Positions 4,724-6,377 of a stretch of 16,089 nt of DNA are shown in pieces. How positions within the stretch are numbered: position 1 is the stretch's first letter; every line of letters starts with the position of its first letter. The position numbers and the translations under genes were made by a program. The stretch is from the IMG/VR virus record IMGVR_UViG_2529293138_000003; one strand, 5' to 3'. The notes beneath the pieces were generated by a model. That model did no database searches, was not told where the DNA came from, and saw only the letters and a program-made list of their open reading frames with translations. This DNA is from a virus (lineage: Duplodnaviria; Heunggongvirae; Uroviricota; Caudoviricetes).

Positions 4724-6035
4724 TCTCCCGCATATTGCCAGCATGGCCTTTAATGAGCCGCTGATGCTTGAACCCGCCTATGCGCGGGTTTTCTTTTGTG
4801 CGCTTGCAGGCCAGCTTGGGATCAGCCGCCTGACGGATGCGGTGTCCGGCGACAGCCTGACTGCCCCGGAGGCACTCGCGACGCTGGCGTTATCCGGTGA
4901 TGATGACGGACCACGACAGGCCCGCAGTTATCAGGTCATGAACGGCATCGCCGTGCTGCCGGTGTCCGGTACGCTGGTCAGCCGGACGCGGGCGCTGCAG
5001 CCGTATTCGGGAATGACCGGTTACAACGGCATTATCGCCCGTCTGCAACAGGCTGCCAGCGATCCGATGGTGGACGGCATTCTGCTGGATATGGACACAC
5101 CCGGCGGAATGGTGGCAGGGGCATTTGACTGCGCTGACATCATCGCCCGTGTGCGTGACATAAAGCCGGTATGGGCGCTGGCCAATGACATGAACTGCAG
5201 TGCAGGGCAGCTGCTTGCCAGTGCCGCCTCCCGGCGTCTGGTCACGCAGACCGCCCGGACAGGCTCCATCGGCGTCATGATGGCTCACAGTAATTACGGT
5301 GCTGCGCTGGAGAAACAGGGTGTGGAAATCACGCTGATTTACAGCGGCAGCCATAAGGTGGATGGCAACCCCTACAGCCATCTTCCGGATGACGTCCGGG
5401 AGACACTGCAGTCCCGGATGGATGCAACCCGCCAGATGTTTGCACAGAAGGTGTCGGCATATACCGGCCTGTCCGTGCAGGCTGTGCTGGATACCGAGGC
5501 TGCAGTGTACAGCGGTCAGGAGGCCATTGATGCCGGACTGGCTGATGAACTTGTTAACAGTACCGATGCGATCACCGTCATGCGTGATGCACTGGATGCA
5601 CGTAAATCCCGTCTCTCAGGAGGGCGAATGACCAAAGAGACTCAATCAACAACTGTTTCAGCCACTGCTTCGCAGGCTGACGTTACTGGCGTGGTGCAAG
5701 CGACGGAGGGCGAGAACGCCAGCGCGGCGCAGCCGGACGTGAACGCGCAGATCACCGCAGCGGTTGCGGCAGAAAACAGCCGCATTATGGGGATCCTCAA
5801 CTGTGAGGAGGCCCACGGACGCGAAGAACAGGCACGCGTGCTGGCAGAAACCCCCGGTATGACCGTGGAAACGGCCCGCAGCATTCTGGCCGCAGCACCA
5901 CAGAGTGCACAGGCGCGCAGTGACACTGCGCTGGATCGTCTGATGCAGGGGGCACCGGCACCGCTGGCTGCAGGTAACCTGGCATCTGATATCCATAAAG
6001 AATTACTTAATACACCTGAAGCTTTACCGGTATAA
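4704..6035 (+). CDS. C: Prohead protease gpC (S49/ClpP-like serine protease family), about 443 aa, GTG start at 4704 preceded by gaggaggagaaga
   Basis: The ORF track extends to an upstream ATG at 4569 inside B, but the strong Shine-Dalgarno gaggagg sits 5-13 nt before the GTG at 4704 and the product then begins [21 protein letters not shown] (lambda gpC N-terminus). It is 4 codons longer than lambda gpC as I recall it (439 aa). Confidence 0.85.
5418..6035 (+). CDS. nu3: Scaffolding protein gpNu3, made from an internal in-frame start within C (nested gene sharing the C-terminal ~205 codons)
   Basis: In-frame ATG at 5418 (MDATRQMFAQKV...), exactly 238 codons after the C start, as in lambda (C 4418 / Nu3 5132). 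Acidic, Ala/Gln-rich product typical of scaffold proteins. Confidence 0.75.
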   Translation: MDATRQMFAQKVSAYTGLSVQAVLDTEAAVYSGQEAIDAGLADELVNSTDAITVMRDALDARKSRLSGGRMTKETQSTTVSATASQADVTGVVQATEGENASAAQPDVNAQITAAVAAENSRIMGILNCEEAHGREEQARVLAETPGMTVETARSILAAAPQSAQARSDTALDRLMQGAPAPLAAGNLASDIHKELLNTPEALPV

Positions 6036-6044
6036 GAGGCAGTT

Positions 6045-6377
6045 ATGGCGACAAAAGAAGAGTTTAACCATTACCAGCCGCTGGGTAACAGTGATCCGGC
6101 TCATACAGCAATTGCGCCTGGCGGATTGAGTGCGAAAACGCCTGCAATGACCCCGCTGATGCTGGATGGCACTACCCGTAAGCTGGTTGTGTGGGATGGC
6201 ACCACCGACGGTGCTGCCGTTGGCATTCTGGCGGTTGCTGCTGACCAGACCAGCACCACACTGACGTTCTACAAGTCCGGCTCGTTCCGTTATGAGGATG
6301 TGCTCTGGCCGGAGGCTGCCAGCGACGAGACGAAAAAACGGACCGCGTTTGCCGGAACGGCAATCAGCATCGTTTAA
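6045..6377 (+). CDS. D: Head decoration protein gpD (110 aa), N-terminal part divergent from lambda
   Basis: ORF 6045..6377; the C-terminal two thirds ([30 protein letters not shown]...[10 protein letters not shown]) match lambda gpD; the N-terminus [27 protein letters not shown] differs at several positions from lambda as recalled. Confidence 0.9.

Follow-up and report, generated by a model that had tools for sequence, protein, structure and literature searches.

The window, by which we mean the whole 16,089-bp stretch of DNA analysed, represents the left arm of a lambda-like (pro)phage, with nu1 at one end and the start of J at the other. Lambda (NC_001416) is co-linear with it at about 97% identity, with 470 substitutions over the 15.6 kb aligned, and the head genes and other features discussed here are listed in Table 1. 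GpC is an S49 protease with a nested Nu3, as indicated by the Peptidase_S49 domain and by an in-frame internal ATG that aligns with that of lambda nu3, and a 1332-nt coding sequence is annotated at the gene C position in phage Perceval (OV696612) and in E. coli records. Gene C begins with GTG in a start context identical to that of lambda, and we dropped this codon as a possible oddity because lambda uses the same one. GpD belongs to the HDPD family (PF02924; 74.9 bits against a Pfam cutoff of 29.1, E=7e-21), and it matches solved capsid structures over its full length (7VII, 7VIK and 8XQB; E=9e-62 with 7VII chain H, residues 1–110). Lambda gpD is found as a trimer at the quasi-3-fold axes (PMC5701804). 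A consensus scan of positions 5800–6600 returned no promoter-like or terminator-like site. In other records (N15, HK629) a terminator hairpin is annotated in the D–E spacer.

Table 1. Coordinates of genes, divergent segments and homology arms around the C/Nu3–D junction of the window.
Feature	Coordinates	Strand	Remarks
Gene C, S49 head protease	4704..6035	+	443 aa (lambda C plus 4); Pfam Peptidase_S49 PF01343, E=2e-44
nu3, scaffolding protein, nested in frame in C	5418..6035	+	ATG at 5418; 205 aa; C terminus common with C
Left homology arm	5881..5979		99 bp of perfect identity with lambda, directly 5' of the patch
Last 18 codons of C/Nu3 (…NLASDIHKELLNTPEALPV)	5979..6032	+	versus lambda dS 0.85, dN 0.29
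Recombined patch, class-A allele	5980..6190	+	39 substitutions and a 12-nt insertion versus lambda
12-nt insertion, 4 codons (EALP)	6014..6025	+	not present in lambda, YDC107_1, N15 or phi80
C–D spacer, GAGGCAGTT	6036..6044	+	holds the D Shine-Dalgarno sequence
Gene D, head decoration protein	6045..6377	+	110 aa; Pfam HDPD; PDB matches 7VII/7VIK/8XQB
D codons 1–49	6045..6191	+	11 of 12 substitutions; versus lambda dS 0.27, dN 0.14
Right homology arm	6191..6229		39 bp identical with lambda; 98.4% identity on to 6377
D–E spacer and E N-arm codons 1–31	6378..6524	+	lambda-type in the window except A-type 6426, 6428 and 6429
Gene E	6433..7458		Pfam Phage_cap_E
E codons ~100–124, predicted spine helix	6732..6804	+	A-type in the window; right end of the usual A block

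A divergent tract at the C/Nu3–D junction

The divergence between the window and lambda is concentrated at the junction of C/Nu3 and D, where 39 of 211 bp are substituted (18.5%) as compared with 2.8% over the rest of the 15.6 kb aligned; this is the top 211-bp window of the entire 16 kb, with a binomial tail probability of 1.2e-20. Identity to lambda plotted in 200-bp bins, a check that the first-pass annotation had proposed, is not uniform but falls to 0.775 at 6001–6200, between adjacent bins of 0.955–0.985 and wider surroundings that reach 0.99. Identity to Perceval in the patch bin is 0.995, and across the patch as a whole the window is 98.6–100% identical to Perceval, to phage PhiR47_2 (PV340567) and to L010, its closest relative in our comparison set. 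In base-level alignment the dense differences from lambda set in at 5980/5991 and end at 6173/6190, in agreement with the tract of 5980–6200 first suggested as a recombination patch.

The first part of the tract encodes the common C terminus of C and Nu3. The window protein ends in ...DIHKELLNTPEALPV, four residues beyond the lambda end, and alignment of the tails (...ASDIHKELLNTPEALPV in the window against ...ASDAVNDLLNTPV in lambda) places the additional length, noticed at first reading as ~4 extra codons, in the 12-nt insertion at 6014–6025. The final residues are ...NLASDIHKELLNTPEALPV in the window and ...NPASDAVNDLLNTPV in lambda, and the window and lambda Nu3 proteins are 95% identical, with the differences gathered in the last 16 residues. 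The Shine-Dalgarno region of D differs as well, the window having TAAGAGGC, which is also the form in N15 and phi80, and lambda having TAAGGGAT.

The base composition of this segment had been described as AT-rich and unlike its GC-rich flanks. The contrast with the flanks is real, with a GC content of 0.349 at 5985–6067 against 0.66 to the left and 0.59 to the right, and the AT-rich tail of C is not an unchanged feature of lambda, which has no such tail; but the trough itself is partly common to the two phages, as GC over the corresponding stretch of lambda is also low (0.423), and the window differs only in a deeper trough with 12 nt more length. Of the substitutions in the patch, more put A or T in the window than the reverse (23:7, p=0.005). 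The shift in composition deepens a trough that lambda also has and is not wholly foreign. We also considered whether the low-GC stretch opens the translation-initiation region of D, and found this uninformative since the two alleles differ little in fold at the D start (mean unpaired probability 0.51 versus 0.40, MFE -13.0 versus -15.9 kcal/mol).

The remainder of the tract encodes the N-terminal part of gpD. As a whole, the gpD of the window has the same sequence as that of Perceval and shows 89% identity with lambda gpD. The 12 differences from lambda are T2A, S3T, T6E, T8N, Q13L, T23I, A32T, T42G, S43T, S44T, A49V and T80S; 11 of these fall in residues 2–49 and residues 50–110 differ at T80S alone, which bears out the earlier impression of many substitutions in the N-terminal ~45 residues followed by a lambda-like C-terminal part. 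Five of the 12 substituted positions (2, 3, 6, 8 and 13) are inside the N-terminal arm. Residues ~1–14 of gpD are disordered in solution and form a strand in the capsid (PMC5701804), which, according to the summary of Lander 2008 given in that paper, links one gpE, at its E-loop, with the N-arm of its neighbour; the proposed contact of the gpD N terminus with the capsid is correct by the same account. All four elements of the original observation (length, composition, gpD changes and their clustering) hold at the positions where they had been placed.

Synonymous sites are also affected. Compared with lambda, dS reaches 0.85 for the C tail and 0.27 for D codons 1–49, both estimates coming from few synonymous sites (10–36); the adjoining coding DNA gives 0.054 and 0.045. 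The ratio dN/dS is about 0.5 in D codons 1–49 and about 0.34 for the C tail, as compared with about 0.15 for the flanks. Because dN is disproportionately high in D codons 1–49, relaxed or diversifying selection there adds to the contrast seen at the protein level. These ratios, together with the disorder of gpD residues 1–14 in solution (PMC5701804) and the variability of the same junction in N15 and phi80, would suit an account in which a disordered Nu3 tail and the gpD N terminus diverged rapidly in place, under relaxed or diversifying selection and without recombination, but synonymous divergence is raised too, to 5–15 times that of the flanks.

Two allele classes on shared flanks

We compared the region with about 120 homologous regions, drawn from 4 phages, 84 IMG/VR loci, 27 metagenome contigs and several Escherichia and Shigella genomes; these population samples are non-independent, as they include clonal prophage lineages. 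Across 5980–6190 the sequences fall into two classes that are 23% apart, with no intermediates (31 A and 46 B sequences, then 69 A and 52 B). Class A includes the window, Perceval and PhiR47_2 among its members, and class B includes lambda and most of the others. The fixed differences between the classes span 5980 to 6173 with sharp boundaries, and at site 6190 the A-type base is present in every class-A sequence and also in 24% of those in class B. Over the patch, class-A sequences differ among themselves by 0.4% and class-B sequences by 1.0%, as against 23% for pairs taken from the two classes; the 1.4 kb upstream gives 2.4%, 2.7% and 2.9% for the same three comparisons. In a search of E. 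coli genomes, only 2 of 2,794 matching records fall in the intermediate identity band.

The flanks are incongruent with the patch. The upstream 1.4-kb flanks are identical between the A-class loci L018, L172 and L110 and the B-class loci L043 and L048, and in E. coli 2024CK-00188 (L109) the A patch stands by itself in a background that is lambda-type over D-3'/E, with breakpoints at 5880–5980 and 6190–6260. In L110 the right-hand breakpoint lies between 6282 and 6378. The two halves of the A patch were never found separated in the comparison set.

These data bear directly on rapid divergence in place. It would have to account for bimodal alleles with zero intermediates, for A and B carriers that have identical 1.4-kb flanks yet differ by 23% in the patch, and for the same two-state pattern in a non-coding spacer and in the mostly synonymous E segment at 6732–6804; we regard it as effectively refuted, and its probability as close to negligible. 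Given the bimodality, the identical flanks, the lone patch in L109 and the raised dS, fast evolution in situ is excluded as the sole cause and a recombinational mosaic is established. The lambdoid mosaic exchange put forward in the first-pass annotation is supported by the bimodal alleles, by the occurrence of A and B on shared flanks and by the raised dS, and the tract shows the features expected of a mosaic segment, namely sharp local divergence, phylogenetic incongruence, raised dS and flanking identity at least as long as the MEPS.

The interpretation in which we have high confidence is that 5980–6190 is the minority A form of two old C/Nu3–D junction alleles that circulate among E. coli lambda-like (pro)phages, recombined onto a lambda-like background. 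The A allele would have been placed on a background ~97–99% identical to lambda by homologous or homeologous recombination, with crossovers in near-identical DNA, that is within the 99 bp on the left and, on the right, within the 39 bp or the ~190 bp of near-identity (~98%) that follow. The MEPS is reported as 23–27 bp for Red-beta and 31–34 bp for RecA (PMC3945230). The longest run of identity between the alleles inside the patch is 28 bp, about the minimum for RecA or Red-beta, and on this ground the patch is expected to be inherited as a unit; the geometry of identity likewise places crossovers in the flanks and fits with patch halves that are never separated. The patch replaces three elements together, the C-terminal tail of C/Nu3, the region from the C stop codon through the spacer to the D Shine-Dalgarno sequence, and the N-terminal region of gpD. 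Red or RecA, with patchy mismatch repair, would be the probable enzymes, a presumption that extends to the direction of transfer. Since Perceval and PhiR47_2 carry A, both alleles are functional, and they are probably near-equivalent in function. The patch is ordinary, textbook lambdoid phage mosaicism.

The downstream A block and the hybrid window

The A patch is usually the left end of a longer A block of ~825 bp, from about 5980 to 6804, that reaches into E. The A-linked differences downstream of the patch are sites 6215 and 6282, the D–E spacer at 6378–6429, the E N-arm at 6438–6543, and E 6732–6804, and the DNA between these clusters, including ~190-bp stretches, is ~98–99% identical across the classes. 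In Perceval the E N-arm carries 8 amino-acid changes in residues 3–31. The E segment at codons ~100–124 has M113R, R117L and E120N relative to lambda and is mostly synonymous in its divergence (dS 1.39, dN 0.08). Linkage to A is asymmetric, decaying within 150–300 bp upstream of the patch. From diagnostic queries of complete E. coli genomes, taking the best place per record so that the counts are approximate, the patch/N-arm haplotypes number ~229 AA, ~5 AB, ~3 BA and ~2,975 BB, from which we calculate r2 ~0.96. Among metagenome A carriers 25 of 26 have the A-type E N-arm. Recombinants are seen in both directions (AB and BA), and their head gene sets are annotated intact.

The window is one of these exceptions. 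It is A-type at 5980–6190, 6282, 6426–6429, 6531 and 6732–6804, and lambda-type at 6215, 6378–6424, 6438–6524 and 6543; the segment 6378–6524 is A-type in ~98% of other class-A carriers. The fine A/B/A/B alternation at 6378–6543 was seen in the window only, among the sequences compared. L010 is 99.4% identical to the window over 4401–5800 and identical through the patch, and it keeps the full A-type E N-arm. The simplest reading is that the window is a rare secondary recombinant, in which an A-block phage was converted by a lambda-type partner with patchy heteroduplex repair. By this secondary recombination the D–E spacer and E N-arm of the window would have gone back to lambda type.

The short tracts at 6378–6543 may instead represent an assembly chimera of co-resident lambdoid prophages, which would leave the C/D patch unaffected. 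The broader form of this explanation, in which the window would be a consensus assembled from two lambda-like prophages of a single genome, gains some plausibility from the frequency of several lambda-like prophages per E. coli genome (a median of 3 places with a 16-kb query) and from the alternation itself, unmatched in other sequences. We nonetheless consider it very unlikely, as the same A patch with the same boundaries is present in complete long-read genomes and in isolated phages, and L010 agrees with the window both upstream of the patch and through it. From these three lines the C/D patch is certainly genuine, and doubt is limited to the D–E spacer and E N-arm tracts.

A different question is raised by the extent of the block. 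In their A-type forms, the Nu3 C-tail, the N-terminal arm of gpD, the gpE N-arm and residues 113–120 of the gpE spine helix could make up a co-adapted interface module held together by epistasis, in which case the window would be a rare hybrid, perhaps of lower fitness. Consistent with this are the near-complete linkage over ~825 bp despite the ~190-bp near-identical stretches between clusters, the A-type E N-arm in nearly all metagenome A carriers, and the asymmetry with upstream DNA, where linkage is soon gone. The protein contacts are also suggestive: pairing of the N-terminal strand of gpD with the E-loop of gpE and with a neighbouring gpE N-arm is again summarised in PMC5701804, yeast two-hybrid assays show an interaction of Nu3 with E (PMC3224144), and capsid genes are reported to be transferred together in lambdoid phages (PMC9836094). 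However, tight physical linkage and a recent common origin of the A block would suffice without selection, recombinants occur both ways with head gene sets annotated intact, and in the window an A-type D stands beside an E N-arm of lambda type. The largely synonymous divergence of E codons 100–124 also argues for shared history rather than a selected interface. We therefore think co-adaptation possible but improbable, and prefer the reading of the patch as a recombined junction allele of which the window carries a secondarily converted copy.

Distribution, origin and comparison with known systems

The A allele is present in ~227–234 of 5,426 complete E. coli genomes, the lambda type being present in ~2,600–3,000, and it is found also in 34–38 IMG/VR contigs and 27 metagenome contigs; every one of these copies is 97.6–100% identical to the window patch. 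In four IMG/VR contigs the tail appeared to lack an A-type D beside it, but these proved to be ordinary A alleles for which the stored sequence is incomplete. The allele is already known, in the sense that isolated phages and hundreds of genomes contain it, with the plain annotations head decoration protein and S49 family peptidase.

We searched for a donor lineage, that is for A-type sequence within uniformly divergent DNA, with patch blastn and D tblastn against phages, a D-protein scan of species-representative genomes, and peptide-level DNA patterns (the extended Nu3 tail in IMG/VR and the A-type gpD N terminus in metagenomes). No such lineage was found in the phage, E. coli, species-representative, IMG/VR or metagenome collections; a BLAST of the segment, which had been suggested as a route to the donor, recovered the same allele in known phages but not the lineage from which it came. 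N15 and phi80 are ruled out as donors by their 63–66% identity in the patch. The D matches among species-representative genomes are mostly lambda-type D on low-coverage contigs from unrelated taxa, probably lambda spike-in contamination. A donor lineage is desirable, though not strictly defining, for a mosaic segment; because none was found, the original exchange and its direction are inferred and not observed.

The polarity of some differences can be suggested with N15 as an outgroup. At the discriminating sites N15 agrees with A at 16, with B (lambda) at 13 and with neither at 10, and from this split both alleles are old and about equally diverged. The EALP insertion is derived in A, since it is missing from N15 and phi80. 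For the initiation region of D, A keeps the ancestral sequence TAAGAGGC…ATGGC, and in gpD it has 6 ancestral residue states, as compared with 2 in lambda.

GpD is widely used as a display platform, and the natural A allele indicates that 11 gpD positions in residues 2–49, 5 of them in the capsid-binding arm, as well as the length of the Nu3 tail, tolerate change in viable phages. The locus is also a clean and well-sampled divergence island amid near-identical lambdoid head genes, and its natural recombinants could be used to ask whether scaffold tail, decoration arm and capsid N-arm must match; if co-adaptation were true, the window and the ~5 AB and ~3 BA E. coli prophages would be natural experiments on the compatibility of scaffold, decoration and capsid proteins. 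The practical consequences of the patch are modest, and its extensions, a tight haplotype block over three physically interacting capsid-assembly segments and rare natural hybrids including the window, are only mildly interesting.

The closest known relatives of the patch are those of Perceval and PhiR47_2, which carry the same allele at 98.5–98.6% identity over 5975–6190, with the same 12-nt insertion and identical gpD. They differ from the window in the tail, which reads DTNK in both and DIHK in the window (5992T, 5994C), and in having further variant clusters at C 5682–5747 and in the D–E spacer and E N-arm (6378–6524), where the window is lambda-type. Lambda itself shares with the window the gene order, the nested nu3, the 9-nt C–D spacer, the low-GC trough at the junction and flanks that are 97–99% identical, and is unlike it in 18.5% of patch bases, the 4 extra codons, the Shine-Dalgarno context and the 11 changes in gpD residues 2–49. 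The N15 gp5/gp6–gp7 and phi80 homologues have a homologous junction with the same organisation, and have the TAAGAGGC…ATGGC sequence and 6 gpD residue states in common with A; they are only 63–66% identical to the window in the patch and are without the EALP insertion.

The patch also resembles the mosaics attributed to relaxed homologous recombination by De Paepe et al. 2014 (PMC3945230), in that a sub-gene tract (~210 bp, or ~825 bp for the block) lies between stretches of highly similar DNA. In the temperate and defective phages of E. coli, exchanges most often take the form of short gene-fragment mosaics, with a median of ~400–500 bp, and lambdoid exchanges involve small gene fragments more often than whole modules (PMC3945230). 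The arrangement is inverted, however: the mosaics described there are islands of high identity in divergent genomes, whereas the window has a divergent island in genomes that are otherwise near-identical.

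Gene E and the D–E spacer

A short intragenic patch lies within gene E (window 6433–7458) at codons ~100–124 (window 6732–6804), with a dS of 1.39 and a dN of 0.08 relative to lambda (NC_001416), from which it differs by residue changes M113R, R117L, and E120N. Here the window carries the state seen in phage Perceval (OV696612), and this state is nearly always linked with the patch at 5980–6190 that spans the 3′ end of C/Nu3 and the 5′ end of D. We also note three residues in the window gpE (V309K, T311S, and Q278H) that are absent from lambda, Perceval, and YDC107_1.

Between the end of D and the early part of E (6378–6543), very short tracts of lambda type (B-type) and of the type shared with Perceval and PhiR47_2 (A-type) occur in turn, a pattern absent from all other collected sequences. 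The alternation could have arisen from a heteroduplex in which mismatches were repaired in patches; alternatively, it could reflect an assembly chimera.

Positions of the alternating tracts and of the gpE residue differences
Feature	Window position	Comparison
B-type tracts	6378–6424, 6438–6524, 6543	
A-type tracts	6426–6429, 6531	
E codons 309–311 and 278	7356–7365 and 7266	gpE versus lambda, Perceval, and YDC107_1

Six IMG/VR loci (L017, L022, L033, L063, L074, and L080) match the window only as far as ~6677 and then diverge within gene E, and two metagenome loci (L165 and L167) behave in the same way. This suggests that ~6677 is a recurrent breakpoint, or that these loci have an insertion or an alternative 3′ part of E there.

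Lambda-type D in assemblies of unrelated taxa

Lambda-type D is also present on genome contigs in assemblies assigned to unrelated taxa (L089–L108), including Pseudomonas, Shewanella, Bradyrhizobium, Kitasatospora, Enterococcus, and one Akkermansia MAG. These D sequences are 89% identical to the window gpD, the same value as for lambda gpD, and the contigs bearing them are short, often with coverage of about 1x. They are almost certainly lambda control DNA contaminating those assemblies.

Other clusters of differences and the left end

The junction of genes H and M (13284–13494) has 35 substitutions relative to lambda in 211 bp and ranks second within the window in density of lambda differences. 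In the bin at 13201–13400, identity of the window is only 0.84 to either lambda or Perceval, and 0.71 to either PhiR47_2 (PV340567) or YDC107_1; this cluster is probably a further mosaic segment that exists as three or more alleles. Another cluster, in the FI/FII region (7637–7847), has 20 substitutions relative to lambda in 211 bp and includes a 3 nt length difference at 7727.

At the left end, positions 1–200 do not align to the lambda left end and positions 201–400 align only partially (identity ~0.53). The prophage-derived records PhiR47_2, YDC107_1, and an E. coli genome locus (L110) match positions 1–400 at ~64–93%. These alignments indicate that the window reads through the cos region, as prophage DNA or an assembly with circular permutation would.
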